Shown one piece after another: positions 24,109 through 57,656 of a stretch of DNA of 64,000 nt. Made by a program: the position numbers and the translations under genes. How positions within the stretch are numbered: position 1 is the first letter of the stretch; every line of letters starts with the position of its first letter. The DNA lies in assembly GCA_963701015.1 (NCBI GenBank), contig OY969556.1, forward strand, positions 229,186 to 293,185, read 5' to 3'. The notes under the pieces are model-generated. The model worked only from the letters and a program-made list of their open reading frames with translations, had not been told where the DNA came from and did not search any database. Source of the stretch: an uncultured Bacteroidota bacterium. GTDB lineage: Bacteria > Bacteroidota > Bacteroidia > Bacteroidales > DTGW01.

Positions 24109-24124
24109 TTCAATTAATTTTTTT

Positions 24125-36164: not shown

Positions 36165-36202
36165 TAGGGTTTCAAGAAGAGGATACCGCTGCAAAGTACT
36201 AA

Positions 36203-36301: not shown

Positions 36302-36796
36302 AATAAAAAAATACTGATTCGACTAGCAAAACTGAACGACCTTACTGCATTACAAGAGCTTTTTGTTGATACAATTGAAGCTGTTTGCCGTAACCATTAT
36401 TCGCCGGAACAAATTGCAGTTTGGACTTCATCAATTGAAAATACACAACGTTGGACTGATAAATTGGTGAAACAATATTTCATTATTGCAGAAATCGACA
36501 ACAAGATAGTTGGATTTGCTTCGTTAGAAAATAATGAATATTTAGACTTTATGTATGTTCACAAAGATTATCAAAGACAAGGTATTGCAGATAATCTTTA
36601 CTCGGAAATATTAGCCAAAGCAATTAAACACGGTACAACATTATTGACATCTGATGTTAGTATTACGGCCAGGCCATTTTTTGAGAAAAAAGGATTTAAA
36701 CTAATAGCAGAACAAAAAATTAACATCAAAGGTGTTGAAGTTATTAACTTTAAAATGACTTTAGAATTGAAATTAGAAAAAACAAAGAATTCCTAA
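36290..36796 (+). CDS. GNAT-family N-acetyltransferase (YafP-like)
   Basis: YVHKDYQRQGIA acetyl-CoA motif, SITARPFFEKKGF; stop codon lies inside a TCCTAAC R''-like box. Confidence 0.88.
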   Translation: MKLNNKKILIRLAKLNDLTALQELFVDTIEAVCRNHYSPEQIAVWTSSIENTQRWTDKLVKQYFIIAEIDNKIVGFASLENNEYLDFMYVHKDYQRQGIADNLYSEILAKAIKHGTTLLTSDVSITARPFFEKKGFKLIAEQKINIKGVEVINFKMTLELKLEKTKNS

Positions 36797-40430: not shown

Positions 40431-40559
40431 TTATTATAAGTCAAATACTATGAACAATTAATAAAGTTAACAGTTTAGATAAATGCAAATGCGATAGGAT
40501 ATATTCATAGGAAAATAATTTTCTATAGATTGGGTTTCGGTTTTTAATTAGGTTATGCA

Positions 40560-41822: not shown

Positions 41823-41846
41823 AATTGCTTTAAAATAATAAGAGCA

Positions 41847-43553
41847 ATGAGAAAAACGAAAGTTAAAGAAACCGAAACAATAACCCTTCGAAATAAAGCT
41901 GAACAAATGCTTAAAGAAGGGCCTTTAAGAATAGCCTCGGAGTATTCCCAATTTGATATATTGAAACTCATTCATGAGTTACAGGTTTACCATATTGAAT
42001 TGCAATTACAGAACGAAGAACTGTTGCTGGCCCATGAACAGGGTATGGTTGCAATTCAAAAATATACCGATTTATACGAATTTGCTCCTATAGGTTATTT
42101 TACTATTTCCTCTGATGGTAAAATAAATGAGCTTAATAAGAGTGGCTCTCAAATGCTCGGAAAAGAGCGATCACAGATAATTGATGCAAGGTTTGACTCA
42201 TTTGTATCATACAATTCAAAATCTACCTTTTCCATGTTTCTTGAAAATGTATTTAGTAGCAATACTATGGAAACTTGCGAATTAAGTTTAACCACTTCGG
42301 GGAAAATACCAATTTATGTTTACGTTACAGCCCTGGCAGAAGAAAATAAAAATTTTTGTCGCCTCACAATGGCAGATATCACCCAGCGCAGGCAAACAGA
42401 AATTGAGCTGATAAAAGCCAAAGAACATGCTGAAGAAAGTGACCGCTTAAAATCTGCATTCCTTCAAAATATAAGTCACGAAATTAGAACGCCTATGAAT
42501 GGTATCATGGGTTTTTCCAAATTAATAACCAAAAATTACAACAACAAGCAGAAACTCGAACAATTCGCTCATATAATAGACCAGCGATGCACTGATTTGC
42601 TCGATATAATAACTGACATACTCGATATTGCCAAAATAGAATCGGGGCAAATAAGTGTTCACATACAGGAATGTAACTTAAACGATTTATTTGATGAATT
42701 AGGTTCCTTTTTTAAAGAATACCAGAAACGCATTGACAAACACCATATAGAATTCAAACTTCAAGTTCATTGCAATGTTTCAAATAAAATTATATTAACC
42801 GATAAAGTTAAGTTGCGGCAAATATTCATCAACTTAATTACAAATGCATTTAAATTTACCGATAAAGGTACAATCGAAGGTGGCTGCACAATTGATGACC
42901 AAAATAAACTTGTATTTTATTTATCCGACACGGGTATAGGCATTCCACCTGACAAACACGAACAAATTTTCAAACGATTCGCACAATTGAGCCAAGGTCA
43001 AAGTCGTTTATTTGGCGGCACAGGTTTGGGTCTGTCAATTGTTAATGGATTGGTGAACTTATTAGGTGGGAAAATATGGCTCGAATCGGAACTCGGTAAG
43101 GGAACTAAATTTTCATTTACTATTCCCGTTCAAACAATGCATCAAATATTGGCTGAACCTATAATTAGTGATGTACCCAGGTATTTCGAATTTAGTGATA
43201 AAACTATTCTTCTTGTGGAGGACGAAGACTACAATGCTGCCTTTATGAAGGAAATACTTTCCGATTCAGAAATAAATATTATATATGCTGAATTAGGTGC
43301 CGATGCTATTCAAATAGCCAAAACGCAATTCCTCGATTTAATTTTAATGGACATTCGTTTACCTGATATGGATGGATTTGAAGTTATGCGGCAAATAAAA
43401 CAACATAATCCGGAAATAAAAATTATTGTCCAATCAGCATATGCCGCCGCTGAAGATATACAAAAGGCATCTGATGCCGGATCGGTTGACTATATATGTA
43501 AACCCATTGATCCCGATATACTATTAACTATGCTAAATAAACATTTAGCATAA
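41847..43553 (+). CDS. PAS-domain hybrid histidine kinase/response regulator
   Basis: SHEIRTPMN, GTGLGL, C-terminal receiver LMDIRLPDMDG...KP. Confidence 0.92.
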   Translation: MRKTKVKETETITLRNKAEQMLKEGPLRIASEYSQFDILKLIHELQVYHIELQLQNEELLLAHEQGMVAIQKYTDLYEFAPIGYFTISSDGKINELNKSGSQMLGKERSQIIDARFDSFVSYNSKSTFSMFLENVFSSNTMETCELSLTTSGKIPIYVYVTALAEENKNFCRLTMADITQRRQTEIELIKAKEHAEESDRLKSAFLQNISHEIRTPMNGIMGFSKLITKNYNNKQKLEQFAHIIDQRCTDLLDIITDILDIAKIESGQISVHIQECNLNDLFDELGSFFKEYQKRIDKHHIEFKLQVHCNVSNKIILTDKVKLRQIFINLITNAFKFTDKGTIEGGCTIDDQNKLVFYLSDTGIGIPPDKHEQIFKRFAQLSQGQSRLFGGTGLGLSIVNGLVNLLGGKIWLESELGKGTKFSFTIPVQTMHQILAEPIISDVPRYFEFSDKTILLVEDEDYNAAFMKEILSDSEINIIYAELGADAIQIAKTQFLDLILMDIRLPDMDGFEVMRQIKQHNPEIKIIVQSAYAAAEDIQKASDAGSVDYICKPIDPDILLTMLNKHLA

Positions 43554-43571: not shown

Positions 43572-43701
43572 CTGTTTCATCGGCTCATATAAAATGCGGG
43601 TTATAGCGGTTTGCAAGTTCAGTGCTTTCTAATTATATTTGTTTAGTGGTATTTTTCTGCAAATAAATCACGCACGCACGTGAAGCCGCAAACTTTTAGT
43701 G
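43572..43701 (+). repeat. attC-like site (both ends mutated)
   Basis: CTGTTTC-atcggctcatataaaaTGCGGG ... CACGCA...gaagccgcaaact-TTTAGTG; 130 bp. Confidence 0.7.
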
Positions 43702-43772
43702 GTCATTGTAACAGACAACCAAGTAGACATGAAAAACAACAATAAATAATCACAATTTAAAAATCAAGCAGT

Positions 43773-44366
43773 ATGAGAAAAATTATCGTATTAGAGTTTA
43801 TTTCGTTAGATGGAGTTATGCAAGCACCCGGTGAGCCAGAGGAAGATACATCAAACGGTTTCAAATATGGCGGTTGGTCAGCACCGTATTCTGACGAAGT
43901 TGGTGGTAAAGTAATGCAAAAACAGATGAAGCCTGCCGACCTTCTTTTAGGCAGGAAAACGTTTGATATTTTTGCTTCCTACTGGCCTAAACATGCTGAC
44001 TATTGGCCAGGTATCAATGATGTCACAAAATATGTCATGTCCAAGACTATGAAAAAGTCAGATTGGAAAAATACAGTTTTTCTCAAAAGCTTAGCAGATA
44101 TTAAAAAGCTCAAAAATTCAAAAGGTTCTGAGATTAAAGTTTGGGGCAGTAGTGAGCTTTCTCAGCTACTATTTAAGAATGATTTAGTGGACGAACTCTG
44201 GCTCAAAATTTATCCAGTGACACTTGGTAAAGGAAAAAAGTTGTTTGACAATGGAACTGTACCGGCAGCATTTACATTAACAGAGAGTTCGGTTACACCA
44301 ACAGGAGTGATTGTGGCAAATTACAAACGAGCAGGAGAAGTCAAGACAGGAACTATGGGAGCTTAG
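43773..44366 (+). CDS. Dihydrofolate reductase-like (RibD C-terminal) protein
   Basis: ISLDGVMQAPG, LLGRKT, WGS, LVDELWL..YPVTLGKG. Confidence 0.88.
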   Translation: MRKIIVLEFISLDGVMQAPGEPEEDTSNGFKYGGWSAPYSDEVGGKVMQKQMKPADLLLGRKTFDIFASYWPKHADYWPGINDVTKYVMSKTMKKSDWKNTVFLKSLADIKKLKNSKGSEIKVWGSSELSQLLFKNDLVDELWLKIYPVTLGKGKKLFDNGTVPAAFTLTESSVTPTGVIVANYKRAGEVKTGTMGA

Positions 44367-44483
44367 ACAATGACAAATATAGGAAAGCAACTCTTATCCC
44401 GACAGCTTCTCGCCAGACAGAAACAGGACAGCGACAACAACGAAAGACAAAACAACGAACCGCCAACAACACATTAAAACATT

Positions 44484-44873
44484 ATGGAAACTAAAGACGA
44501 TATAACACATTTTGCTCCAGAACTGCACATTCCTAACGGGACATTTAACATTGATTTTTACACAAAATTTGGTGCAACCGAACATTTTTGTTTACGGAAC
44601 GATGACGGGAGTATTCATGTTGCTGAATTAGAAATCAACGGTGGAATTTTTCATGTACACGAAACCATGCGTGATGCTCTTGAACCAATAAGTGCAAAAG
44701 GAGTGACTTGTGTTATAGGTTTGTTTGCTCCTAATGTTGACGACATAATGTATAAAGCTATTTTGGCAGGTGCAACAGAAATTAATCCTGCAACTGACCA
44801 CGATTATGGTTACCGACAAGGAATGTTCAAAGACCCATTTGGACATTATTGGCAAATACAAAAAAAAATCTAA
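44484..44873 (+). CDS. VOC/glyoxalase family protein
   Basis: HVAEL, YGYRQG..KDPFGHYW. Confidence 0.85.
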   Translation: METKDDITHFAPELHIPNGTFNIDFYTKFGATEHFCLRNDDGSIHVAELEINGGIFHVHETMRDALEPISAKGVTCVIGLFAPNVDDIMYKAILAGATEINPATDHDYGYRQGMFKDPFGHYWQIQKKI

Positions 44874-44895
44874 ATAGACTTACACAAAATACTAA

Positions 44896-44955
44896 TTGTA
44901 ACTTCGATTATATTATACGGGTTTCCTCTGCTAGTGCAAGCGTCCGCTTGTGTTA
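44896..44955 (+). repeat. Left arm of an attC-like site truncated by a REP-like hairpin
   Basis: TTGTAAC-ttcgattatattatACGGGtt, then cctctgctagtgcaagcgtccgcttgtgtta. Confidence 0.55.
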
Positions 44956-45073
44956 TTATTCCCAGGTGGGTTTTCTGGGAGAGGATCCGCTGAGATGCAC
45001 TTACTTGAATAGTGAGTTTAAACAATATTTATCTTGGAACTGTTTAAGTTTTAGTTACTTTAAATAGAAGAAC

Positions 45074-45490
45074 ATGTTAAATAGTATGCCATTTATTTTA
45101 TTCGATGGAAATTGTGCCGAAGCAATGTCGTTTTATCAAAAGTGCTTTGGTGGAGAGTTAACAATCATAAGACTTGGCGACACATTAATGAAAGACCAGA
45201 TTCCAAAGGAACAGCATCATAAGGTTACATATGCATATTTAAAAAGTGGTGTTATAGAATTATCTGCCACTGATTGGCTACATTCCACCAGAAAACCAAA
45301 GCAAGGAAACACAGTAGCAATATACATTACTGGTGATTCATATAATGAACTAAAAGACATTTTCAATAAGTTATCAGAAGGAGCTGACAAAGATTTACTA
45401 GATGAATTAAAAGATGTGCCATTTGGTATATATGGACATTTTGCTGATAAATATAGTGTTCATTGGTTCTTCAGGGGAGAGAAACGATAA
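45074..45490 (+). CDS. PhnB-like VOC family protein
   Basis: FDGNCAEAMSFYQKCFGG, PFGIYG..DKYSVHW. Confidence 0.85.
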   Translation: MLNSMPFILFDGNCAEAMSFYQKCFGGELTIIRLGDTLMKDQIPKEQHHKVTYAYLKSGVIELSATDWLHSTRKPKQGNTVAIYITGDSYNELKDIFNKLSEGADKDLLDELKDVPFGIYGHFADKYSVHWFFRGEKR

Positions 45491-45495
45491 TATGA

Positions 45496-45596
45496 ATAGC
45501 AGTTTGCGTAGTTCATTAAGTTTTTTTTATAATTGAGCAAATTAACTAATAATGCAAGTAAGTCCCGCATCAATGATTAGCTGGGAAACCTTGGCG
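45496..45596 (+). repeat. Right portion of an attC-like site
   Basis: tgcaagtaagtCCCGCA...attagctgggaaac-CTTGGCG; left arm missing. Confidence 0.6.
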
Positions 45597-45618
45597 GTAA
45601 TTTTAACGAAATTACAAT

Positions 45619-46212
45619 ATGAGAGTTGGTATATTGCTTTTTGAAGATTTTGAAACTTTAGATGTTTTTGGACCTGTTGAGATTCTCGGCAGACTTAAGG
45701 AACATTTTCAAATTGATTTTTATTCAGAATTGGGTGAGACCGTAAATAATTCTCATGGAGTTTCCATTGATACAAAAAAGCTTGAACTCATTTCTGAAGG
45801 TTTAGATATTTTCCTTATTCCTGGAGGATTGGGAACAAGAAAAGAGGTAAACAACAAATATCTTATTGATTTAATTAAGCAAATTGCAGGATTAAGCAAA
45901 TATGTTCTGACAGTTTGTACCGGGAGTGCATTGCTTGCAAAAACCGGACTATTAGACAATCGTATTGCCACATCTAATAAAAGAGCATTTGATTGGGTTA
46001 TTACAAATGGAGCAAAAGTTAAATGGATAAGAAAAGCGCGTTGGACAATTGACGATAAATTCTACACATCGTCCGGGGTAAGTGCTGGAATTGATATGAC
46101 CTTGGGATTTTTAGCAGATATACATGGACTTGAATTTGCCAGAAAAGTAGCTTTTCAAATAGAATATGACTGGCAGGAAGATAAAAGTGAAGATAAATTT
46201 AGCAAACAATAA
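45619..46212 (+). CDS. DJ-1/PfpI family protein
   Basis: LDVFGP, IPGG, VCTGS, TSSGVSAGID. Confidence 0.9.
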   Translation: MRVGILLFEDFETLDVFGPVEILGRLKEHFQIDFYSELGETVNNSHGVSIDTKKLELISEGLDIFLIPGGLGTRKEVNNKYLIDLIKQIAGLSKYVLTVCTGSALLAKTGLLDNRIATSNKRAFDWVITNGAKVKWIRKARWTIDDKFYTSSGVSAGIDMTLGFLADIHGLEFARKVAFQIEYDWQEDKSEDKFSKQ

Positions 46213-46215
46213 AAA

Positions 46216-46995
46216 ATGAGAAATCTATCTAATGTTGGTCGTATTTTTTATGGCATCTCTATTGTCGTAATAGGGTTGCTTACCATTTATTATCGTGATT
46301 ATCCTTATATGTTAATACCTCAAGAACATCTCTGGATTCCCAATCTTGTATTGTTCGCTTATATTTCCGGAGCTCTGCTTATTTTGGCCGGGGCTTGTAT
46401 TGTTTTTGAAATGAAAATAATTCCAATTTCGTTTGTTTTAGGAAGTGCGCTTCTATTGATATTTTGCTTTTACTTTATTCCATATCAATTTATGGTAAGC
46501 TCGAATTATTTGCATTTTGGTGACTGGGAGAATGCAGCAAAAGAATTAGCATTAGCTGGCGGTGCATTTGTAATTGCCGGCTGCTCCTTAGAAAAAAATA
46601 AAAATACGCTTATAGGGTTTTTGAATAAACTAATGCCTTTTGGATCTGTTTTATTTGCGATAACAATTCTCAGTTTTGGAATTGATCATTTTTTATATGC
46701 CAAAGAGGCATCAGATTATGTTCCATCATGGATACCCTACCATCTGTTCTGGATGTATTTTACCGGCACAGCGCTAATTGGTTCAAGCCTTGCGATTATT
46801 TTGAAAATAAAGGCAGGACTAGCTGCCACTCTTTTAGGTACAATGATTTTAACCTGGTTTATTATTCTTCATATACCCAGGGTGATTACTTCTCCGGTGA
46901 TTTATATTGGAAGTGAAGTTACCAGTGCATTTATAGCGCTTGCATATTGTGGAGTTGCCTTTGTTATTGCCGCAACAGATAAAAGACGACAATAA
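46216..46995 (+). CDS. DoxX-like membrane protein
   Basis: About eight TM segments in two repeats; FGIDHF, VPSWIPYHLFW. Confidence 0.7.
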   Translation: MRNLSNVGRIFYGISIVVIGLLTIYYRDYPYMLIPQEHLWIPNLVLFAYISGALLILAGACIVFEMKIIPISFVLGSALLLIFCFYFIPYQFMVSSNYLHFGDWENAAKELALAGGAFVIAGCSLEKNKNTLIGFLNKLMPFGSVLFAITILSFGIDHFLYAKEASDYVPSWIPYHLFWMYFTGTALIGSSLAIILKIKAGLAATLLGTMILTWFIILHIPRVITSPVIYIGSEVTSAFIALAYCGVAFVIAATDKRRQ

Positions 46996-47001
46996 AACTG
47001 T

Positions 47002-47132
47002 CTGTAACATTAGCGCATATAAAATAAGGGTTTCAGCGGGTTTGCAAGTTCAATGCTATCTAATTACATTTGTGTAGTTGGATTTATATTGCAAGTAAAT
47101 CCCGCAAGGCATTTTAGTCGCGAACGTTGGGC
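47002..47132 (+). repeat. attC-like site (complete)
   Basis: CTGTAAC ... CCCGCA ... cgaac-GTTGGGC (perfect GTTRRRY); 131 bp; starts 6 bp after a stop codon. Confidence 0.8.
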
Positions 47133-47173
47133 GTAATTGAAGAACTTATTGACAGTAAAGTAATTTTATAAGC

Positions 47174-47668
47174 ATGAAAAAGATAATGACTTTATTAGGA
47201 ATTGGACCAAAATTAGTTTTATTCACTTTATTATATTCATTTTTACTAGAAACAGAAATTGAACATTATCATTTTGACATTGCAATAAAGATAGTGCCAT
47301 ACAATTTTTTAGATATAATAGGATTATTATTAATTGTAATAGGATTATTGTTTTTAATTCCATCTTTTATAGCAATAAGTAAATTACGTAAAACGGATAG
47401 ATTATATACAAAAAGGATTTATTCAGTATGTCGTCATCCTTTATACGCAGCATGGATAGTTTTTATTGTTCCGGGAATAATTCTATTATTAAATTCATTA
47501 ATATTATTGACAATTCCATTGGCAATGTATTTTATATTTAGACTATTAATAAAAAATGAAGAGACTATTTTGCTAAATAAGTACAGTGACAAATATCGTG
47601 AATATAAAAATCAAGTAGGATTATTATTTCCTAAGTTTTGGAGATATAAAAATGACAAAGAACAATAG
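47174..47668 (+). CDS. Isoprenylcysteine carboxyl methyltransferase / PEMT family membrane protein
   Basis: IYSVCRHPLY, EE..L..KY...YREYK motifs. Confidence 0.85.
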   Translation: MKKIMTLLGIGPKLVLFTLLYSFLLETEIEHYHFDIAIKIVPYNFLDIIGLLLIVIGLLFLIPSFIAISKLRKTDRLYTKRIYSVCRHPLYAAWIVFIVPGIILLLNSLILLTIPLAMYFIFRLLIKNEETILLNKYSDKYREYKNQVGLLFPKFWRYKNDKEQ

Positions 47669-47683
47669 AATAAATCAACATAT

Positions 47684-48138
47684 GCTCAACTTAAGCTCAT
47701 GCAACACACTCCACCGTTAAGCGTAGTTTGCATCTACGCTTTTTTTATCCTTAGTTTTTAATTAGCGCCTGTCTTTAATATTAACAAACCCTGACAGGCT
47801 TATGCTTAATCAAAGTTCAACAATTATTGAATTCCCTTACAACAAGTTTTGTGAAAAACCCTGTCAGGGTTAATTATCAATGGCTACAGCCTGTTTTATA
47901 AATTAACCGTTATTTATAACCATTCTAAGACATTTATATCAAATAACTTTTTACTTTTAAGGTGAAAATCAGGGGAATTTGTGGGCAGGGTTATTTTAAT
48001 TGTAAAATGAAATGAATTTTATTTTATGACTGTAAAGAATTTATTGAACAAAATAAATAATGCGCCCTATAATGGCAATTATCTGTACATAATTGGAAAG
48101 ACAAGCGCTATGTCATGGTGTGTATTAATAAGTTGTGT
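47684..48138 (+). repeat. Long inter-cassette module, copy A
   Basis: GCTCAAC, REP-like hairpin, AACCCTGACAGG/CCTGTCAGGGTT IR (47787/47860), palindrome 48076-48095, GTTGTGT at 48132. Confidence 0.85.
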
Positions 48139-48159
48139 ACAATACAAATACAAATTAAA

Positions 48160-48726
48160 ATGAGATCGATAATAGTAACTTTAGTAATACTAATTTCTAT
48201 TAAATCATTTAATCAGGAAGGAAAAAAATATGAATATAAAGAAATTGACTGTAAAGATGAGCAAGGAAAGCAGTATGATTTTATTGAAACAAATTTTAAC
48301 GTTGATGGGAGTGTATTAAGTAAAAAAGACTTACATATTGTAAATTATAGAGGTGTAATAGATATTTACTTTTATGCAAAAAAATTTCATTCTTTATTAC
48401 TTCCAGATAAGTTAGTTGACAATAGATACCACAATGATACTATTTTGATCTGGAATTATAAAGGCGATAAAGCGCAAGAATCAAAAAAATCTTTTGCCTA
48501 TGATTCTCTTTCTAGGTTAGTATTGTTTTCTTATTCAGGATGCCAAGTTTGTTCTCAATCTAAATATGATTATAAATTAGAATATGACTTCAAAAATAGA
48601 CCTAAGAACATAATCAATTTAAATGGTAATGACAGATATGAGATAATTTATGACAAAAATGGAGAAGTTACAGAACTTAGAAGTTATTCCTTTAATAAGT
48701 TATATCAAAAAGTAAAATTGAAATAA
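48160..48726 (+). CDS. Hypothetical secreted protein
   Basis: Signal-like N-terminus from ATG 48160; YD-like motifs near the C-terminus. Confidence 0.65.
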   Translation: MRSIIVTLVILISIKSFNQEGKKYEYKEIDCKDEQGKQYDFIETNFNVDGSVLSKKDLHIVNYRGVIDIYFYAKKFHSLLLPDKLVDNRYHNDTILIWNYKGDKAQESKKSFAYDSLSRLVLFSYSGCQVCSQSKYDYKLEYDFKNRPKNIINLNGNDRYEIIYDKNGEVTELRSYSFNKLYQKVKLK

Positions 48727-48735
48727 AAGTACTGT

Positions 48736-48855
48736 GTACAACAACAACTCAAATTCCATGCGGGCTTCAGAATGTTTGCAAGTTCAGAGTTTTCTGTGCA
48801 ACTGGATTTATATTGCAATTAAAACCCGCGCACTAATTAGCCGTAAACGTTGGCG
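48736..48855 (+). repeat. attC-like site (complete, short internal deletion)
   Basis: GTACAAC...TGCGGG...CCCGCG...aattagccgtaaac-GTTGGCG; 120 bp. Confidence 0.8.
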
Positions 48856-48898
48856 GCCAGCAATAAGAACATTATTATTAACTAAATACTAATTTACT

Positions 48899-49771
48899 AT
48901 GAAAAAAATTTCGTTTATTTTCTTATCATGTATATGTACATGTTTGCTTTTTAGTCAAGAAAAAGAGATAAAAGTAAAGAAAGACATTGTTTATCTTGAT
49001 GGAACTCCAGTAGTTAAAATGATTGGGAAATGTGGCGTTTTTACTAGGCTTAATTACACATTCATATCCTTAAAGGGAGATACATTATTTACTATGAAAG
49101 ATAATTTTTATAAATATTCCAACCCTTATTATGGTACAACAACTTGGTTTGACATAAATTTTTTAAAATTAAAGAAGCAATTAATGTTAATCAGAGAACA
49201 TACACTTGTAAACGATAAGCAAGTTGTAAAATATGTATTACTAACATTAAATCCTTTTATTATAAAAGATGGGGAATTAGACACATCAGCAGTTGCCCAA
49301 GTAATACAAAAGCAAGATTATCGGAATACATTTATAGCTGATACGACCTATAAGTTAGGATTTGACAGAAAAAAGAATATGATATTAGACAAATCATATA
49401 TAAAAAGAGACATAAATAAACCCATAATTGTTGCAGATGCAACCATACATCCAGAATTAAAAGGATTTAATAATTATAAATTATATGAAATACAACAGGA
49501 TAAAGTTTTGATTGGATTAATAGTAGAAGTAAATGGAATGGAAACTACATCAAGAAAAATATCATATTACTTTTTACGAAAGTTAAATGAGCCAATGGAA
49601 TATCAAGGAGAGCATTATCCATTTGTAATGGTAGCATTAATAGATGATAGTTTTCAGGGATTTTTAGTTAGTACCTATAAAAAGGAATCTATGTTTTATA
49701 CTGCTCCACAAAACTCTACTAATAAATTTTTAGATTATGCAAAACATTTAGTAGATATTAAAGATTTGTAA
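48899..49771 (+). CDS. Hypothetical secreted protein
   Basis: Signal peptide; 290-aa ORF; flanked by GTTGGCGGCC and GGCCGCCAAC. Confidence 0.75.
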   Translation: MKKISFIFLSCICTCLLFSQEKEIKVKKDIVYLDGTPVVKMIGKCGVFTRLNYTFISLKGDTLFTMKDNFYKYSNPYYGTTTWFDINFLKLKKQLMLIREHTLVNDKQVVKYVLLTLNPFIIKDGELDTSAVAQVIQKQDYRNTFIADTTYKLGFDRKKNMILDKSYIKRDINKPIIVADATIHPELKGFNNYKLYEIQQDKVLIGLIVEVNGMETTSRKISYYFLRKLNEPMEYQGEHYPFVMVALIDDSFQGFLVSTYKKESMFYTAPQNSTNKFLDYAKHLVDIKDL

Positions 49772-49865
49772 TTTTATTAAAAACATTAATTAGCCGGCCG
49801 CCAACATTGGCACAAGCAACATGTACCCCACGCTAATCGTAATATATGAATAAATGAAAAGGTTA

Positions 49866-51693
49866 GAAGGTGTCTCAAAAGTCGAGGCACCTTTTTTTGT
49901 TAATAAAAAGTTCATAAAAAAGGCTCATTAATTTAATCATTTATCTTGTTTAGTTGTCTCATTATCAAAAGTATGAGACATGTATAACCAAAGATCAAAA
50001 GTAGTTTTTAAAGACTACAGTCCCAATCAAATCATGTTACTTCCCCCATCACTGGAGGAGTTCATAGATGCAAACCATCCAGTTCGGGTTGTAAACAAAG
50101 TCATTGACAGTATTAACGCTGATGCATTGCATAAACAATATAAAGGAGGTGGCACCTCAAGCTATCATCCTCGGATGTTGCTGAAGGTTCTTATATACAG
50201 TTACCTGAACAATGTATATAGTAGTCGTAAAATGGAAACAGCCTTAAAAGAGAACATTCATTTTATGTGGCTGAGTGCTATGAACCACCCTGATCATAAT
50301 ACACTTAATCGATTTAGAAGTGATAGGCTCAAAAATGTTTTAAAAGAAATATTTGCACAAGTAGTCATGTTATTAGTGGAATCGGGACATGTAAGCCTTC
50401 AGGAAATCTATGTTGATGGGACCAAAATAGAATCCAAGGCTAATCGTTATACTTTCGTTTGGGGCAATTCCATAAAGACCAATAAGGAGAAAATGGTGGC
50501 ACAACTAAAAGAGTTATGGGATTATACCCAATCGTTAGCCAAAGAGGAATTACAAGATACAGATAATGTTGACTTTACCCAAATAGATGCAGAAAAAGTA
50601 AAACGGACTATTAATCAAATAGATCAAGCATTATCTGATAAAAAGGTTGACAAGAAAGTAAGACAGAAATTAAATTACGCTCGCCAACATTGGCCACAAA
50701 ATCTCAACAAGTACAAGGAGCAAGAGCAGATATTAGGCAAACGGAACTCGTATAGTAAAACAGACCCTGGGGCAACCTTCATGCGAATGAAAGAAGATCA
50801 CATGAAAAACGGTCAGTTGAAACCAGGATATAATGTTCAGATAAGCACTAATAATCAATATATTGTAAACTATAGCCATCACCCCAATCCAACCGATACA
50901 ACCACATTAAGGCCTCATTTGGAACAGTTCCACACCCTGTATAACAATTATCCTAAAGTAGCTGTGGCAGATGCTGGTTATGGTTCAGAAGAAAATTACG
51001 CATTGTTAGAAAAGGCAAAAATAGACGCTTATATAAAGTTTAACTATTTTGACAAAGATCAACGCAAAATTAAGAACTCTCTCAATAGCAATTTATTCTA
51101 CAACTCTGAAAAGAACTGCTACTATTGTCCAATGGGTCAACCGATGAATTACATTGGCTCAATCAAACGAGTTACAGAAAACGGTTTTGAGCAACAAATA
51201 TCTCGTTACCAAGCTATTAATTGCAGTACATGCCCATTGCGTGGAGCTTGTCATAAAAGTAAGAAGAATAAAATAATAGAAATTAATCATAATCTAAACC
51301 GACTAAAGGCCCAAGCATCAGAACGCTTGAAGAGTGAGCAAGGGCTTTACTACCGAAGTAAAAGAGGGGTTGATGTTGAACCCGTTTTTGCCAATATCAA
51401 GTTTAATAAAGGATTTAAGCGTTTTGGACTTAAAGGAATGTTAAAAACAGAAATTGAAATGGGCTTACTAGCGTTGGCACACAATTTAGCAAAAAGAGCA
51501 GCATAGGCTGCTTTGCCATCCTCTTAGGAAGGCAACAAATGTCCTATATCGTAATTATTAAATTATTATCAAAAAAATCTAAATCGATCAAACAAAAAAA
51601 TAATCTACCATAAAACATTTTGATCAGTTCAAAAAAATTCTACGTTTTTTAACCAAAAAAAGACCATCTCATTTTTACTTTTGAGACGGCCTC
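49866..51693 (+). mobile_element. IS1182-family insertion sequence, copy 2 (1828 bp)
   Basis: Same ends and identical 508-aa transposase as copy 1. Confidence 0.92.
49980..51506 (+). CDS. IS1182-family DDE transposase
   Basis: Protein identical to that of 22468-23994. Confidence 0.93.
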   Translation: MYNQRSKVVFKDYSPNQIMLLPPSLEEFIDANHPVRVVNKVIDSINADALHKQYKGGGTSSYHPRMLLKVLIYSYLNNVYSSRKMETALKENIHFMWLSAMNHPDHNTLNRFRSDRLKNVLKEIFAQVVMLLVESGHVSLQEIYVDGTKIESKANRYTFVWGNSIKTNKEKMVAQLKELWDYTQSLAKEELQDTDNVDFTQIDAEKVKRTINQIDQALSDKKVDKKVRQKLNYARQHWPQNLNKYKEQEQILGKRNSYSKTDPGATFMRMKEDHMKNGQLKPGYNVQISTNNQYIVNYSHHPNPTDTTTLRPHLEQFHTLYNNYPKVAVADAGYGSEENYALLEKAKIDAYIKFNYFDKDQRKIKNSLNSNLFYNSEKNCYYCPMGQPMNYIGSIKRVTENGFEQQISRYQAINCSTCPLRGACHKSKKNKIIEINHNLNRLKAQASERLKSEQGLYYRSKRGVDVEPVFANIKFNKGFKRFGLKGMLKTEIEMGLLALAHNLAKRAA

Positions 51694-52105
51694 TTTTTTT
51701 ATCCTTAATTTTTAATTAGCGCATGTCTTTAATATTAACAAACCCTGACAGGCTTATGCTTAATCAAAGCTCAACAATTATTAAATTCCCTTACAATCTG
51801 TTTTGTAAAAAACCCTGTCAGGGTTATTTGTCAATAACTACAGCTTATTTTAAAAATTAACCGTTATTTATACCCATTCTAAGGCATTTATATCAAATAA
51901 CTTTTTACTTTTAAAGTGAAAATCAGGGGAATTTGTGGGCAGGGATATTTTAATTGTAAAATGAAATGAAAATTCACCCTATAATGGCAATTATCTGTAC
52001 ATAATTGGAAATAAAAACACCATGGCATTGTGCTTATATGCAAGTTTTACAAAATAAATCATTAGTCATATATTAAAATTTTAATTATTTTAACACAAAT
52101 TTATT

Positions 52106-52960
52106 ATGAAAAAAATTAGTTTATTTTTAACCTTTATTTTCTTATTTTCAATTGGTTTTTCACAACAAGACTCCCTCTTAAAAAGTAAAAGCGGTAAAAT
52201 AATTTTACCGCAACAAGGTGATTATGCTATTGGATTATCCGTTAATTCAATATTTAATTATTTAGGGAATATGTTTAGTAGTTCTGGGAATAATCAATTT
52301 AATATAAACCTTTTAAATGGGAATCAAATATTCGGAAAATATTTTCTTTCTAGTCAAAGTGCAATCCGTGTAAAATTTTCGATAAACAAAAATTCACAAA
52401 ATTATGAAAACAACGTAGTCGATGATTATAATAATAATAATATGGTAACAGATAAATTAAATTATACGAATACAAGTTTAGATATGACGGTTGGTTTTGA
52501 AAAACGCAAAGGATCAGGTCGCCTCCAGGTTTCATATGGCGCCGAATTTACTTTTGGATATTCTGGTTATGATAATAAATATACTTATGGTAATTCATTT
52601 TCATTCAATAATACCGTTCCTACTTCAACATTTAATTTCTATAACTATAATGGTAATAACACAAATAGTAATCGCACATCAAATCGTATTCTTGAAACTA
52701 AACAAGATAATGGAATAGGAATAGGGATTAGGGCTTTTACCGGCATTGAATATTTTATATTTCCCAAAATATCGGTAGGAGGTGAAATAGGACTAAGTTA
52801 TTTCAATGATTTTAATGGGAAGAGTTCAAATACTTATCAATATTGGGATTATGTGAATAACAATGTTTCAACTAACAACAATGAAATTAAAAATAATTCT
52901 TATAATATTAACACTGACATTTTGAATGGACAGGTTTTTTTACTATTTCATTTTAGATAA
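52106..52960 (+). CDS. Outer-membrane beta-barrel protein
   Basis: Signal peptide, alternating beta strands, GIEYFIFPKISVGGE, terminal FHFR. Confidence 0.75.
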   Translation: MKKISLFLTFIFLFSIGFSQQDSLLKSKSGKIILPQQGDYAIGLSVNSIFNYLGNMFSSSGNNQFNINLLNGNQIFGKYFLSSQSAIRVKFSINKNSQNYENNVVDDYNNNNMVTDKLNYTNTSLDMTVGFEKRKGSGRLQVSYGAEFTFGYSGYDNKYTYGNSFSFNNTVPTSTFNFYNYNGNNTNSNRTSNRILETKQDNGIGIGIRAFTGIEYFIFPKISVGGEIGLSYFNDFNGKSSNTYQYWDYVNNNVSTNNNEIKNNSYNINTDILNGQVFLLFHFR

Positions 52961-52973
52961 AATAAAAGCCAGC

Positions 52974-53382
52974 CTATAACATTAGCTCATACAACACACT
53001 CCCCCGCTATGCGTAGTTTGCATCTACGCTTTTTTTATCTTTAATTTTTAATTAGCGCATTTCTTTAATTTCAACAAACCCTGACAGGCTTATGCTTAAT
53101 CAAAGCTCAACAATTATTAAATTCCTTACAATCTGTTTTGTGAAAAGCCCTGTCAGGGTTATGTGTCAATAGCTACAGCCTGTTTTAAAAATTAACCGTT
53201 ATTTATACCCATTCTAAGGCAATTATATCAAATATCTTTTTACTTTTAAGGTGAAAATCAAGGGAATTTGTGGGTAGGGATAATTTAATTGTAAACTGAA
53301 ATAAAAAATTAAACCTATATTGGCAATTATCTGTACATAATTGGAAAGATAAATTTCATGTTATTTCGCATATAAGTTATTA
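52974..53382 (+). repeat. Long inter-cassette module, copy C
   Basis: CTATAAC, REP-like hairpin 53001-53031, CCCTGACAGG IR, palindrome 53324-53343, GTT at 53376. Confidence 0.85.
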
Positions 53383-53462
53383 GCAACAATTATAGCGTGA
53401 ATCGTAATTAATAATTATTTTGAACAAATATTTTTAATACGACAAATAAACAAAAATAAACT

Positions 53463-54137
53463 ATGGCTCATCAACATCATTATGTAATAATCAAAGGTGA
53501 AAATGGCAATCCAAGTCAGCATCCTCTTAAGACTTGGGTAAGACAAAACTTAAATTTTTTACCTCAAGGACTTGACCCCGACTTTCAAACATCTCATAAA
53601 GTTAGACGAATACTATCACAAAACGGGTGGCATTTAGAATTCACAGACACCGAAGTATTTGTTATTAGGCCGGATGACAATGGAAATTTTGATTATACGA
53701 ATAATTATGTTGCAGAAATTCAAAAAGAAGAAGATGATGAAATAATGGAGAATGAAGACGCATATGAAATTACTTTTGGTCTTGAAAAAGATTTACAATC
53801 TGCACTTCGTAAAAATATTGAATCATTAGAAAAAGGACTGACAATTATCGATGATGGGAAAGAGAGAACTACAATAGCTGGCAGAATTGATATTACAGCA
53901 AAAGACAATGCCAATCGGACTGTTATTATAGAACTAAAAGCTGTTGATGCAAAACCAGATGTAATTGCACAAACTTTGGCTTATATGGAAGCGGTAAAAG
54001 CGGAAGACAAAGTTGAAGTACGTGGAATAATTATAACAAGCGGTTTCCCTGACAGGGTTAAATTAGCAGCAAGACAAATTAGTAATTTAAAACTTGTAAA
54101 ATATTCTTTTCAATTTACTTTTAACATTATTGAATAA
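53463..54137 (+). CDS. Protein with C-terminal NucS/EndoMS-like PD-(D/E)xK nuclease domain
   Basis: LEKDLQ..L...GRIDITAKD...VIIELK...Q...Y motif; unknown N-terminal domain. Confidence 0.8.
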   Translation: MAHQHHYVIIKGENGNPSQHPLKTWVRQNLNFLPQGLDPDFQTSHKVRRILSQNGWHLEFTDTEVFVIRPDDNGNFDYTNNYVAEIQKEEDDEIMENEDAYEITFGLEKDLQSALRKNIESLEKGLTIIDDGKERTTIAGRIDITAKDNANRTVIIELKAVDAKPDVIAQTLAYMEAVKAEDKVEVRGIIITSGFPDRVKLAARQISNLKLVKYSFQFTFNIIE

Positions 54138-54193
54138 AATATAACATTACGAATAATGAAAAGAATAGTGTCTCAGATGAAAATTATAAATGC

Positions 54194-54322
54194 CACCAAC
54201 ATCGTCATATAAAATGCGGGTTATAGAGCGGTTCAAGTCTATTGCTTTATAATTATATTTGTTTAGTTGGTTTTATTTTGCAAGTAAATCCCGCACTAAG
54301 TTGTAGTCGGGGAAAGTTATGT
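54194..54322 (+). repeat. attC-like site (complete)
   Basis: CACCAAC-atcgtcatataaaaTGCGGG ... CCCGCA...tagtcggggaaa-GTTATGT; 129 bp. Confidence 0.8.
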
Positions 54323-54349
54323 CGCATTAATAATAAAAATACTGTTACA

Positions 54350-55939
54350 ATGATACAAGATAGATTAATTATGCAGGCTGTTTCAAAAATTCATCAGCGT
54401 GCAGATAGACAAGAAAAAATTGAAAAGATAGTAAATACCTATGTTGAGATAGGTATTTTGCCACAACTATTGAATAAAAATAATCAAATAATTTATGGCA
54501 GACGAGGAACTGGAAAGACTCATATATTAAGAAAACTTGAGGATGATTTAATTAAATCAAAGGATGAGAAAAATCTTGTAACATATATAGATGCAAGATA
54601 TTTGGGAAGTAGCCCCCAATATACTGATACAGCTTCATCTCTTAGAGTTCGCTGTCAATCATTGTTTAATGATGTTCTAAAGGAAATATACTATACAATT
54701 CTTCAACATTTAATTGAATTTCCTAACGAAAACGCAAATCGAGCATTTGATGCACTTGAAAATTTTAATAAATCAAGCAATGTTGAGATTTATTCTTCAA
54801 AATCTATTTCACAAAAAGAACAAATTGCTAATAAGGATAGTTCGAATGCTGGTATAGATATATCTCCAAATACTATTGCAATAAAGTTTGGTGCATCTTC
54901 AATTGAAGAATTAAATAAAGAGCGAACAATTACTTATAGCATAGAAGATGAACAAAAGATTTTATTTCCTGACATTAATTTCTTTCTAAAAAGTGTTCTT
55001 GAATTATCAGATACTAATTTATTCCTTTTATTTGATGAATGGGCTACTATTCCTTTTGATATCCAACCTTATTTGGCTGAATTTTTTAAACGTAGCTTTT
55101 TGCCAAACCAAAGAATTACATTAAAAATTGCATCATTGGAATATAGGTCAAACTTTACAATCCCCAAAGAGAAACATAATTATATAGGTTTTGAATTGGG
55201 TAGTGACATAGCAACTAATTTAGATGTTGATGATTACTATGTTTATGATAGAAATCCAAAGCATATTTCAGATGTATTCGCTGAAATATTATTTAAACAT
55301 ATTGAAAGTGAACTTCCAGAAAATTACTTAATCTCAAATTATAATATCTCAAATTCTAAAAAGTTTATTCAAACTATTTTTACCAATATAAATGTTTTTA
55401 ATGAACTTGTTAGAGCAGCAGAGGGTGTAATTAGAGATTTAATAATTATTTTTTCAATTTCGTTTTTTGATTCTCAAAGATTCAGTCGTAAGAATATTGA
55501 TAAAAAAACAATTATTGAGTCAGCAAGACAATGGTTTGAAAAGGATAAAGCTAAAAATCTCGATGAAAATTTACAAGATATACTAAGAAGAATAGTTGAT
55601 GAAGTTATTGGAACACGCAGAGCTCGTTCTTTTATGATTCCTCGTGATTTAGAGAAACATGATATAATACAAAAATTATTTGATTCAAGGGTTTTGCACT
55701 TAATAAAAAGAGGCTATGCTGATAAAATAAATCCGGGTATAAGATATAATGTTTATACTTTAGATTTTGGTACTTATGTTGACCTTATACAGACAAGTAA
55801 AGAGCCGGAAATTGACTTTACTAATTCAGAAATTAGTGAAAGTGAAGAATTTATTGTACCATTTGATGATAAGAGAAGTATTAGAAGAATAATTCTGACA
55901 GAACAAATTTTTAACGCCCATACTGGCACGAGTTTATAA
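54350..55939 (+). CDS. P-loop ATPase (ORC/CDC6- or STAND-like) of unknown function
   Basis: Walker A GRRGTGKT, Walker B LFLLFDE; start set to ATG 54350. Confidence 0.8.
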   Translation: MIQDRLIMQAVSKIHQRADRQEKIEKIVNTYVEIGILPQLLNKNNQIIYGRRGTGKTHILRKLEDDLIKSKDEKNLVTYIDARYLGSSPQYTDTASSLRVRCQSLFNDVLKEIYYTILQHLIEFPNENANRAFDALENFNKSSNVEIYSSKSISQKEQIANKDSSNAGIDISPNTIAIKFGASSIEELNKERTITYSIEDEQKILFPDINFFLKSVLELSDTNLFLLFDEWATIPFDIQPYLAEFFKRSFLPNQRITLKIASLEYRSNFTIPKEKHNYIGFELGSDIATNLDVDDYYVYDRNPKHISDVFAEILFKHIESELPENYLISNYNISNSKKFIQTIFTNINVFNELVRAAEGVIRDLIIIFSISFFDSQRFSRKNIDKKTIIESARQWFEKDKAKNLDENLQDILRRIVDEVIGTRRARSFMIPRDLEKHDIIQKLFDSRVLHLIKRGYADKINPGIRYNVYTLDFGTYVDLIQTSKEPEIDFTNSEISESEEFIVPFDDKRSIRRIILTEQIFNAHTGTSL

Positions 55940-56087
55940 CACGTGCCCCCGCTGACGCTCACTTGCTAGCGCAAGTGTCCGATTGTGCTAAATATGCTTT
56001 TGAAAAATTCAATAGTTTATTAAAATAAGATAGTACAGGTTAAAAGCTTGAACAGACCCCCGCTGGCGCGAGTTTGTAACGCGTGCC
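55925..56087. repeat. Cluster of three REP-like GC-rich hairpins
   Basis: ggcacgagtttataacacgtgcc (55925), tagcgcaagtgtccgattgtgcta (55967), ccccgctggcgcgagtttgtaacgcgtgcc (~56058). Confidence 0.7.
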
Positions 56088-56225
56088 TCTCTAATCTGCA
56101 TTTATAAATTTATCCATGCTCTTGTAAAATACTAAGTAATTTTTTGAGTAATTCAATTTATATAAGGCTAAACCAACAAAGCCTTTTTTAAATTGTTAAA
56201 ACAGATAATTTAAAACCAAATGCTT

Positions 56226-56969
56226 ATGTGTTACGATGCAAAAGCGCTAATAAGCACCCAGTTAAAAAGGGCAAAAAGGTTTCACAATGTAGAAGCCATT
56301 AAAGAAATTGTAGAAAAACGAAAGGGTTATAATTACTATCATGTTTCGGGCTTTGCACATCCCCGCCTGGTTATTTATACCAATGCCGAACCAACTAAAC
56401 CCACGGCAAGTGTTTGGGGTTTATTGCCAACATGGTCGAAGGATAAGGAGATTTGGAACAATACACTAAATGCCCGGGTTGAAACTATATTCGAAAAATC
56501 ATCCTTTAAAGAGTCGGCAAAGAACAAACGTTGCCTTATTTACCTCGACGGTTTTTACGAACACCAGCATGTGAAAGGTAAAGCATATCCTTATTATATT
56601 CACCGGAACGATAGCGATCATTTGGTTGTTGCAGGTTTATGGAACGATTGGACTGATAAACAAACTGGCGAAATACTAAATACTTTCAGTATAGTTACCA
56701 CAAAGGCAAATAAACTCATGTCAGTTATTCACAACAATCCTAAATTGCCTGAACCACGTATGCCTTTAATTTTGGATGAAAGTTTGGAAGATGTCTGGCT
56801 AAATTTGACAGGTGAATCGGAATTGAAAGATTTAGCCATTTCTATCTCCGACGATAAAATGGAAGCGCATACAGTTCAAAAATTAAAAGGGGCAACCGCA
56901 GTTGGAAATGTGGAGCAGGCAACCGATAAGTTTTTATATCCTGAATTAAGTCCGCCTACATTGTTTTAA
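56226..56969 (+). CDS. SOS response-associated peptidase (SRAP/YedK/HMCES family)
   Basis: N-terminal Met-Cys at 56226, WGLLP, NARVET, GFYE, IH...RMP. Confidence 0.9.
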   Translation: MCYDAKALISTQLKRAKRFHNVEAIKEIVEKRKGYNYYHVSGFAHPRLVIYTNAEPTKPTASVWGLLPTWSKDKEIWNNTLNARVETIFEKSSFKESAKNKRCLIYLDGFYEHQHVKGKAYPYYIHRNDSDHLVVAGLWNDWTDKQTGEILNTFSIVTTKANKLMSVIHNNPKLPEPRMPLILDESLEDVWLNLTGESELKDLAISISDDKMEAHTVQKLKGATAVGNVEQATDKFLYPELSPPTLF

Positions 56970-56985
56970 TGAATTTGCTAATGTG

Positions 56986-57294
56986 TTGAGGCTATTAGCT
57001 ACTCCATCGAAGCTATTAGCTACTGTGTCGAGGCTTTTTGCTACTCCATCGAAGCTATTAGCTACTCTGTCGAAGCTATTAGCTGCTCCATCGAGGCTAT
57101 TAGCTGCTCCATCGAGGCTATTAGCTGCTCCATCGAGGCTATTAGCTACTCCGTCGAGGCTATTAGCTACTCCATCGAGGCTATTAGCTACTCCATCGAG
57201 GCTATTAGCTACTCCATCGAAGCTATTAGTTACTGTGTCGAGGCTTTTTGCTACTCCATCGAAGCTATTAGCTACTCCATCGAAGCTTTTTGCT
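56986..57294. repeat. 21-bp tandem array, about 14.7 units (TCGAGGCTATTAGCTACTCCA)
   Basis: Directly visible; translates as 7-aa repeats. Confidence 0.95.
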
Positions 57295-57339
57295 AAATAT
57301 CCATTTCCAGGAAACTATTTGTCAATTTCTTATTAAAAT

Positions 57340-57545
57340 GATTCGTCCGCATTCCAATATTAGTCGTCCGCACTCAACTAATTCATGTTCCGGTTCAATG
57401 AATACATATTCCTGTTCAATAATTCCTTGTCCCGGTTTGATAATTACATGTTCCGGTTTAATAATTCCTTGTTCCGGTTCAATAAATTCATGTTCCGGTT
57501 TAATAATTACATGTTCCGGTTTAATGTTGAGGTGTCCGCACTGAT
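57340..57545. repeat. Second, more degenerate 21-bp tandem array (ATGTTCCGGTTTAATAATTAC-like)
   Basis: TGTTCCGGTT recurs with a 21-bp period; minus-strand ORF 57322-57552 reads IKPEHVI heptads. Confidence 0.85.
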
Positions 57546-57656
57546 TCATCACATATCCCGGCCAATAAAATTAGAGAGTGTCGAGAGTGTCCGAGAGTGT
57601 CCAAAAAAGTGTGTAAATGATAATATTTTCTATGATTACAAAAAGCCATGATAATT

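Follow-up and report, generated by a model that had tools for sequence, protein, structure and literature searches.

Complementary gene-unit ends point to integron-type cassette arrays, with a probable non-canonical recombinase, in a Bacteroidota chromosome

Sedentary chromosomal integrons, such as the Vibrio cholerae superintegron with its VCR-type attC sites, hold long arrays of co-oriented, promoter-less genes whose attC sites are similar within a genome. In the classical picture each attC travels with its gene, attC sites measure about 57–141 nt and the bottom strand is the recombinogenic one. That a crossover at G|TT explains the complementary ends of a cassette is textbook integron biology, the principle reportedly going back to Stokes and Hall in the 1990s. 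Here we describe a stretch of 64,000 nt from an uncultured Bacteroidota bacterium (hereafter the window; positions 229186–293185 of a single 4.47-Mb contig, from a genome that is 98.3% complete), in which the segment at about 34–56 kb consists of short genes separated by attC-like repeats. An earlier note on this DNA had proposed that each gene unit has self-complementary ends, the signature of excisable circular cassettes. In our judgement this segment is likely to be one of several integron-type cassette arrays in a low-GC, Bacteroidota-like chromosome, which a probably non-canonical recombinase would have to serve in trans.

The array shares with the V. cholerae superintegron its long run of co-oriented, promoter-less genes and the similarity of its attC-like sites within the genome, the AAC...GTT boundaries and a cognate-end complementarity that implies a G|TT crossover, as well as a hairpin with an L-box stem and a single bottom-strand bulged base; moreover, the nearest solved structure to the enzyme that we propose for it is VchIntIA. 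It differs in that this candidate lacks the additional domain of IntI (16 residues against 58) and carries an extra N-terminal domain, in that the recombinase gene, in other genomes, is co-oriented with the cassettes and followed by an attI-like site downstream, in an outer stem of 15 rather than 7 bp that keeps C·A / G·T at one conserved position, and in that the arrays here are dispersed over the genome, away from the gene. Transcription of the integrase gene in the cassette direction is also found in integrons with an 'inverted' integrase gene, which Boucher et al. reportedly described in 2007 from Treponema denticola, Chlorobi, Planctomycetes and others; those are said to keep the IntI additional domain, unlike the recombinase family considered here. 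Discrete gene units moved by an Xer-type tyrosine recombinase are likewise known from the Xer-dependent pdif modules of Acinetobacter plasmids, and our candidate scores as well against XerA as against IntI. However, pdif modules are bounded by 28-bp double-stranded XerC/XerD sites in alternating orientation, unlike the hairpin sites of about 120 nt with AAC/GTT ends and cognate R boxes seen here.

Surveys that define integrons by the additional domain of IntI, those of the IntegronFinder papers, found only In0 elements in Bacteroidetes and later one complete integron in Salinibacter ruber (PMC9024848). In a 2024 preprint, Bacteroidota are grouped with the clades in which previous studies had detected no integrons (10.1101/2024.07.02.601686), and a review counts them among the phyla with integrons detected. 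The additional domain is held necessary for integron recombination (PMC9668308). A search of the full-text literature, outside which lay subscription journals and supplementary tables that may list groups of clustered attC sites without an integron integrase (CALINs) from Bacteroidetes, retrieved no description of the present recombinase–array system in Bacteroidota. The cassette-end principle is not new; the recombinase-linked system is a probable non-canonical integron class. Complementary ends alone denote a cassette array, and the weight of the present case comes from its phylum and its enzyme.

Between about 34 and 56 kb of the window, nearly all real-looking open reading frames (ORFs, at least 50 aa) lie on the + strand and are short, diverse and functionally unrelated. 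Pfam searches identified a RibD_C protein, two glyoxalase-fold proteins, DJ-1/PfpI, a membrane protein, an ICMT-type methyltransferase, a NucS_C-like nuclease domain and an ORC/CDC6-like ATPase, and three array proteins matched no known family. The ORFs are separated by two repeat families, one of about 120 nt that always starts with AAC and ends with GTT, and one of 400–450 nt that occupies the same AAC-to-GTT position. Each unit is a promoter-less, co-oriented ORF with its 5' boundary at ...G|TT and its 3' boundary formed by an R'' box ending in AAC plus an attC-like hairpin site, of which the consensus is AAC-ATCGGCTCATATAAAATGCGGG...CCCGCACTTTACATAGCCGAGGAAC-GTT (about 123 nt). A covariance model built from this genome's own sites (R1) detected five full-length sites and one partial site in the window (E at most 7.3e-05), and a domain search of the window proteins found no recombinase gene. 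Judged by R1 rather than by the model of IntegronFinder, the array is therefore like a CALIN, with at least two clustered attC-like sites and no IntI nearby. CALINs have been treated as degraded or orphan, unlike the present sites, which in other genomes are linked to a specific non-canonical recombinase. About half of CALINs are reported from genomes without IntI, and some are very large, with up to 114 sites (PMC4889954; Néron et al. 2022, PMC9024848).

In integrons, recombination cuts between G and TT, so that the bases that follow the G at the start of a cassette were once contiguous with its own attC and pair with the bases before AAC. The earlier note had quoted four such end pairs, and on a recount all of their letters and coordinates proved to be right. 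The best pair, GTTGGCGGCC (48849) and GGCCGCCAAC (49796–49805), matches at 10 of 10 positions. It is followed by GTTGGGCGTA (47126) with TATGCTCAAC (47681–47690) and GTTGTGTACA (48132) with TGTGTACAAC (48733–48742), both at 8/10, and by GTTATTAGCA (53376) with TGCCACCAAC (54191–54200) at 7/10. Since GTT and AAC are fixed, scoring was restricted to the 7 variable positions, of which these pairs match 7, 5, 5 and 4, respectively. The two units that had been called poor are indeed so (45590/47008 and 52044/52980, each 2/7), and a seventh unit, encoding the RibD_C protein, scored 4/7. For the seven units of the window, the cognate mean is 4.14/7 compared with 2.67/7 for non-cognate ends; in an exact permutation test 118 of 5040 assignments equalled or exceeded the observed sum, and for the four quoted units alone 1 of 24 did so. 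The end-match signal in the window by itself is thus modest, suggestive but not compelling.

A much larger set was available in the rest of the genome. Using the window repeats as blastn queries, 161 merged sites in 17 clusters were found, with big arrays at 1.72–1.81, 1.97–2.10 and 2.69–2.75 Mb; an nhmmer profile of the 123-nt repeat gave 197 sites, 132 of them full length. Among the full-length sites, 129/132 start with AAC, 129/132 end with GTT and 127/132 do both. GTT is directly followed by A or G in 100% of sites, AAC is directly preceded by C or T in 99%, and the sites follow the R''/R' box rule (RYYYAAC / GTTRRRY). From the full-length sites, 102 adjacent pairs not more than 3 kb apart were taken as cognate ends. 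Complementarity between the 7 variable bases after GTT and those before AAC averaged 5.56/7 in these pairs, compared with 2.76/7 when both ends were taken from a single linear site and 2.89/7 for non-cognate pairs; 50 of the 102 matched at 7/7 and a further 24 at 6/7, and none of 10,000 permutations reached the observed cognate mean. Both statements of the note that bear on these numbers, namely that cognate ends should surpass shuffled ones in a larger set and that the ends of a single linear site match less well, are thereby borne out.

The same numbers bear on the possibility that the repeats are intergenic palindromes of the repetitive extragenic palindromic (REP) or terminator type and that end complementarity is a by-product of composition. 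The sites are hairpins that follow stop codons, and the long ones contain a terminator-like hairpin with a run of T, as this explanation would have it; yet the controls above have the same composition and stay at 2.76–2.89/7. In addition, units recur in other genomes with breaks at R boxes and the sites keep a fixed orientation to a recombinase gene (both described below), and, at E up to 1, no Rfam match was obtained in window positions 30000–58000. The results of the permutations and of the comparison across genomes already contradict the palindrome explanation, which in our view has next to no chance of being correct.

When the 102 sites were circularised in silico and their bottom strands folded as DNA, the mean energy was −28.1 kcal/mol, compared with −21.2 kcal/mol for the linear site and −21.1 kcal/mol with a shuffled partner (paired t-test, p = 7e-25), the circle being better by 6.9 kcal/mol. 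The suggestion of the earlier note that pairing extends beyond the 7-bp R box also holds, and by more than the roughly 10 bp it had proposed: cognate-specific pairing reaches position 15 counted from the G, with positions 8–10 and 12–15 matched at frequencies of 0.62–0.84 versus 0.29–0.55. The exception is position 11, at which the top-strand bases hardly ever complement each other and C stands opposite A in 92/102 cognate pairs (C on the 5' side in 87% of sites, A on the 3' side in 100%). On the bottom strand this C·A becomes a G·T wobble, paired as T·G in 72/102 minimum free energy (MFE) folds, and at least 13 pairs form within the outer 19 nt in 73/102 folds. Such a wobble would favour folding of the bottom strand, and the conserved position offers a simple, testable mechanism for the choice of the folding strand. 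The inner stem covaries between site subfamilies, with compensatory changes at 7 of 15 consensus pairs among 43 sites. In the bottom-strand folds inspected, one arm has just one bulged base and the other a bulge of 4–5 nt.

The 15-nt rule, with the same single mismatch, is also found in Flavobacterium, Pedobacter, Litoribacter and other genera. Across 19 adjacent pairs from other genera, eight match at 13 or 14 of 15 positions, and units of up to 1.2 kb average 13.1/15 (n = 11); the lower-scoring, longer 'units' probably contain sites that the model missed.

Homology breakpoints were studied within and between genomes. Cassette copies in different arrays of this genome are 99.7% identical in two comparisons and 67% in a third; in all three, homology starts 4–11 nt before the G, inside the ...GAAC common to all sites, and these paralogous copies share the downstream site. 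The ICMT unit (47126–47690) has a copy of 87% identity in a genome of a different genus but the same family (G004:C287), with homology confined to 47132–47694. The R'' box of that copy, TACGCCCAAC, is the perfect complement of the 5' end of the window unit, indicating that the two mismatches of the latter are later transitions. A copy of the RibD_C unit with 96% identity lies between two intact attC sites in G007:C82; homology ends at window position 44468, and compared with this copy the G of the window R' box is mutated to T and the unit's own attC is lost. Lastly, a low-depth soil contig carries the 3' end of the 48132–48742 unit and diverges directly after AAC. That contig comes from a set of four soil-metagenome runs of one study, which contain 0.09–0.29 of the sampled window words, mostly from an insertion sequence (IS), and no RNA data set is listed with them; no joints were seen in the soil contigs, which leave large parts of the stretch uncovered and have no bearing on excision or expression. 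Within and between genomes, the breakpoints therefore coincide with the R boxes; in two of the comparisons between genomes, however, the downstream attC was not shared. Taken together, the matching of cognate ends, the energies of the folds and the places at which homology breaks off support the proposal that the units were inserted as circles at G|TT.

Complementary ends of 10–15 nt also resemble terminal inverted repeats, and a probably active IS family occurs nearby, so that the units might be seen as small transposons or as elements like miniature inverted-repeat transposable elements, with the 123-nt repeat as their preferred target. However, each unit has end sequences of its own, whereas what lies between the units is the conserved repeat, and the ends always adjoin the AAC...GTT of a hairpin site that shows covariation. 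The units contain unrelated genes and no transposase, and no target-site duplications were noticed by eye, no dedicated search having been made. We therefore consider a transposon origin very improbable, and retain the cassette interpretation.

The integron integrase model TIGR02249 gave nothing over cut-off in this 98.3%-complete, single-contig genome, and among 61 related genomes it had a match over the cut-off in one, G033 from the same order, which encodes a true IntI (325.8 bits). tblastn with the G033 IntI, or with its additional domain alone, detected no such domain in our genome; a possible IntI remnant at C1:580725–580778 (E 0.074 with the additional-domain query) lies in a long unrelated frame without recombinase motifs and was rejected. 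The best partial IntI match is a 372-aa protein (C1:3281213–3282331) with Phage_int_SAM_4 and Phage_integrase domains. It scores 221.4 bits against the XerA model NF040815 (cut-off 220) and 214.7 against TIGR02249 (cut-off 265), and it falls well below the XerD (196 versus 329.6) and XerC (183 versus 335) cut-offs; separate genes of XerC/D size (about 298–300 aa) are present in the genome. Aligned to VchIntIA (2a3v), the protein has 16 residues where IntI4 has 58, from which it follows that the IntI additional domain is absent. Across 37 homologues, among them the copy of this genome, the residues R229, K254, H319, R322, H345 and Y354 do not vary; we take these to be the ones that are catalytic in tyrosine recombinases. 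An AlphaFold model (pLDDT 79) gave 2a3v as the top Foldseek match, followed by XerA. We conclude that the enzyme of the arrays is probably not a canonical IntI and that the best candidate is this XerA/IntI-like tyrosine recombinase of about 370 aa without an additional domain.

The first 80–95 residues or so of the candidate form an extra domain with a predicted β-β-α-β-β-α-β-α order. A fold search with this domain gave no match at E ≤0.001; the strongest of its weak matches was to the HARP domain of SMARCAL1 (E 0.055, probability 0.92), with probabilities of 0.63–0.75 for the N-terminal domains of XPB. The likeness to the HARP fold, which binds DNA in a structure-specific manner, and to the XPB damage-recognition fold, seen in a predicted structure, may serve as a weak lead. 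Some homologues of the recombinase are 450–700 aa long and have two copies of the N-terminal domain, e.g. L036 (G044:C3), positions 4613–6259. At least 7,995 proteins match the family at E of 1e-40 or better, and the sources annotate the recombinase as XerD or "site-specific integrase".

Other recombinases were considered as well. ORFs were inspected at three array ends in this genome and at two in G001, and none of the ends has a recombinase gene beside it. Outside the window, at G000:C1:1770252–1795013 and 2017579–2040003, insertions of 22–25 kb split the big arrays. Each carries a near-identical 404-aa tyrosine integrase of the Arm-DNA-bind_5 type, and both far-side attC sites show a change at one and the same position, ...CCCGCACT|GACCATAGC..., which would suit an integrative element for which an attC serves as the attachment site. 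These integrases were set aside as recombinases of the arrays, being of the Arm-DNA-bind_5 type and located inside the insertions.

Since the single intact copy of the candidate gene lies about 3 Mb from the window, the enzyme would have to act in trans. Linkage to arrays was sought among its relatives: 80 public loci with homologues of 47–62% identity from many Bacteroidota genera, comprising 942 kb searched on both strands. All 52 R1 matches in these loci lie downstream of the recombinase gene and on its strand, with none in about 602 kb upstream and none on the opposite strand. In 32 of the 80 loci the contig breaks off within less than 700 nt behind the gene; Rfam searches of seven recombinase loci found one tRNA only, so these contig ends are not due to rRNA operons. 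Downstream sequence of at least 1.5 kb is available in 37 loci, 26 of which have an R1 match, and further examples of a gene with attC sites were seen in G044, G005, G012 and G016. R1 was built from the sites of one genome and may thus miss divergent ones; it has matches in 39 of the 61 relatives, and three other genomes of the family have from 41 to at least 56 near-consensus matches each. Among relatives in which profile A2 detected the recombinase (E ≤1e-60), 24/26 have attC matches, versus 15/35 among those in which it did not.

The start of the first cassette could be located in most of these loci. Allowing at most 2 mismatches, 17 of 24 loci have the cognate GTT plus 12 nt of the first attC 89–134 nt beyond the point where the protein match ends, and 3 more have it at the same place with 3–4 mismatches; in three of the remaining four, the cognate start follows an apparent undetected site. 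The attI-like region comprises three boxes (one direct, one inverted about 18 nt further on, one direct), the last running into TATAAACAA|GTT. The boxes differ between lineages and agree within a locus, and from its sequence the region may be regarded as a putative attI with integrase-binding repeats. In Flavobacterium cheonanense (L060), the gene is followed by the attI-like site and then by cassettes that each contain one + strand ORF; their ends match at 14/15, 14/15 and 13/15. Thus, integrase gene, attI-like site and array are adjacent in other Bacteroidota, for a recombinase that is not canonical.

Several observations weigh against an integron served by this enzyme. Within the window, the ends of three of the seven units match no better than chance, and sites of 401–447 nt lie beyond the size range of attC given above, the ends pairing in one of the two that were folded. 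Contrary to the classical model, in which attC moves with its gene, homology of the ICMT unit with G004 and of the soil contig stops at AAC and excludes attC, and several junctions have no attC at all, R''-AAC being followed by the next unit (window 44465–44484; L123 (G004:C287) 1493–1500 and 2055–2060). The array ends of this genome show no convincing attI-like motif. Near its recombinase gene there is no attC within 10 kb (best E 0.36, filters off) and no GTT at the place equivalent to attI, and neither in the window nor elsewhere in the genome does an integrase gene stand next to an array with an attI. Of the 37 loci with enough downstream sequence, 11 lack an R1 match, and 15 of the 35 relatives without a detected recombinase nevertheless have attC matches, many of these genomes being drafts and related genomes not being independent. 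The genome could also have lost a canonical IntI recently. Finally, cutting at G|TT by the candidate recombinase, like every other step, is a prediction from sequences.

A different explanation is that the arrays are frozen relics of a classical integron whose IntI was lost, and the recombinase found elsewhere has another role or merely lands there. In keeping with this, the genome has no IntI, G033 shows that a true IntI exists in the same order, the window array is decayed (mutated R boxes, a missing and a truncated attC), and CALINs in genomes without IntI are known (PMC4889954). Yet the same attC family is near-consensus (at least 146 bits) in three other genomes of the family, from two genera, that have no IntI over cut-off, and near-identical cassette copies (99.5–100%) occur in different arrays. 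Furthermore, the linkage of gene, attI and array is strictly oriented, and the cognate end of the first cassette lies within the attI-like site. A relic of a classical integron is accordingly unlikely in our view, if the strongest of the competing explanations that we weighed.

Returning to integron-type arrays served by the candidate recombinase, the arrays of this genome are best described as CALIN-like, since the recombinase stands alone about 3 Mb away and has no recognisable attI GTT; they would be served in trans, if at all. The IntI-specific additional domain by which a complete integron is recognised is absent from the genome, and with a candidate integrase lacking this domain the system would work like an integron but fail the defining test. 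It is conceivable, and we advance it tentatively, that the Bacteroidota possess a widespread integron class of their own, with a recombinase of about 370 aa, a three-box attI downstream of its gene, co-oriented cassettes and a 15-bp stem with a G·T on the bottom strand only. Such a class would have gone unrecognised because its integrase fails the IntI definition, and it would explain both the large 'CALIN' arrays without IntI and the reported scarcity of integrons in the phylum. The context is about 200 attC-like sites in one genome and related sites in many genera, directly behind a recombinase without the additional domain. If this recombinase performs the recombination, the additional domain would not be a universal requirement for cassette recombination at hairpin sites, a large pool of mobile genes carried by Bacteroidota of soil and water would become visible to annotation, and the origin of many "orphan" attC clusters would be directly testable.

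The individual features of the window array all lie on the + strand. The most upstream clear attC-like site is at 34121–34251 (R1 75.7 bits, E 5.8e-15; repeat families D6/D8). It is followed at 43572–43701 by a degenerate site (R1 79.1 bits) in which R'' has TTC for AAC and R' has TTT for GTT; in an alignment, the equivalent junction of G007 reads cGTTagcgg. Three large genes, for a CheB-CheR-PAS fusion and for a pair of PAS histidine kinases, lie between these two sites at 37764–43553 and far exceed ordinary cassette size. The RibD_C cassette (43695–44467, ORF 43773–44366; Pfam) ends with the R'' box ccgccAAC and is followed by no attC, the next ATG being at 44484. This ATG opens a pair of small glyoxalase-fold ORFs (44484–44873 and 45074–45490, together 44484–45490; Pfam PF00903 and PF06983), between which R1 found no standard attC. 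A truncated site at 45496–45592 retains its 3' part alone and ends in aaacCTTggcgg; it was matched by R1 in part (model positions 32–99, 32.4 bits) and by nhmmer at 45497–45591. The unit at 45590–47008, one of the two with non-complementary ends, encodes DJ-1/PfpI (45619–46212) and a membrane protein (46216–46995; both by Pfam).

Downstream of it, a standard site occupies 47002–47132 (AAC at 47006–47008, GTT at 47126–47128; R1 100.7 bits, nhmmer 100.3 bits) and leads into the ICMT/PEMT-family methyltransferase cassette (47126–47690, ORF 47174–47668; Pfam). A 447-nt long site follows at 47688–48134 (repeat families D2/D5), which opens with AAC and an L''-like start, continues with a terminator-like hairpin and then a conserved module of about 350 nt, and closes with GTT, and whose first 30 and last 40 nt make 15–17 pairs in the DNA MFE fold. 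The next cassette (48132–48742), with an ORF ending at 48726 and no Pfam match, has C/A at position 11 and adjoins a standard site at 48736–48855 (AAC 48740–48742, GTT 48849–48851; R1 94.6 bits). The cassette at 48849–49805, likewise without a Pfam match, contains a 290-aa ORF (48899–49771), and its ends match at 13/15 over the longer stretch, again with C/A at position 11. It is followed by a long site that is split by an IS (49803–52046; 5' part 49803–49864, 3' part 51699–52046), recognised by the homology of 51693–52046 to the other long sites. The inserted element, at 49865–51698, belongs to the IS1182 family (transposase 49980–51506; NCBIfam NF033551, 430.4 bits) and entered at the T-run of the long site; a further copy lies at 22274–24109 of the window. 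The family is probably active, since the genome holds 22 copies at 99.5% identity or more, 21 of them besides that at 49865–51698.

The remaining units comprise that at 52044–52980, with a 284-aa ORF (52106–52960) without a Pfam match and with non-complementary ends, and the cassette of the NucS_C-like nuclease domain (53376–54200, ORF 53463–54137; Pfam PF01939). Between them lies a 401-nt long site (52978–53378; repeat families D2/D5) whose ends barely pair, with 0–5 end-to-end pairs in the MFE fold. A standard site at 54194–54322 (AAC 54198–54200, GTT 54316–54318; R1 103.5 bits) precedes the last recognisable unit, 54316–55941, which encodes an ORC/CDC6-like P-loop ATPase (ORF ending at 55939; Pfam PF24389, NCBIfam NF047389 below cut-off); R1 found no standard attC in the window beyond 54322. 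With two mutated R boxes, one lost and one truncated attC, an IS insertion and three sites of 400–450 nt, the window array appears to be old and decaying.

Compared to the standard sites of about 123 nt, three window sites are 401–447 nt long or split by the IS. All three (47688–48134, 51699–52046 and 52978–53378) have in common the module of about 350 nt inside attC-like ends, in which a terminator-like hairpin with a run of T is followed by an inverted CCCTGACAGG / CCCTGTCAGGG pair. Parts of this module occur at no fewer than 15 other places in the genome, and it has no Rfam match. With pairing ends in one of two folded, the long sites are compatible both with true long attC sites and with attC sites that contain an inserted element.

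Other repeats occur around the array. A 10-nt tandem repeat, AAATTGAATG, is present in 10 copies at 36183–36321, just before a GNAT gene, and 21-nt tandem repeats are found at 56931–57336 (13 copies) and 57344–57574 (8 copies), inside or next to ORFs. After the last cassette, at 55900–56100, a hairpin motif of another kind occurs twice, as ggcacgagtttataacacgtgcc and as ggcgcgagtttgtaacgcgtgcc.

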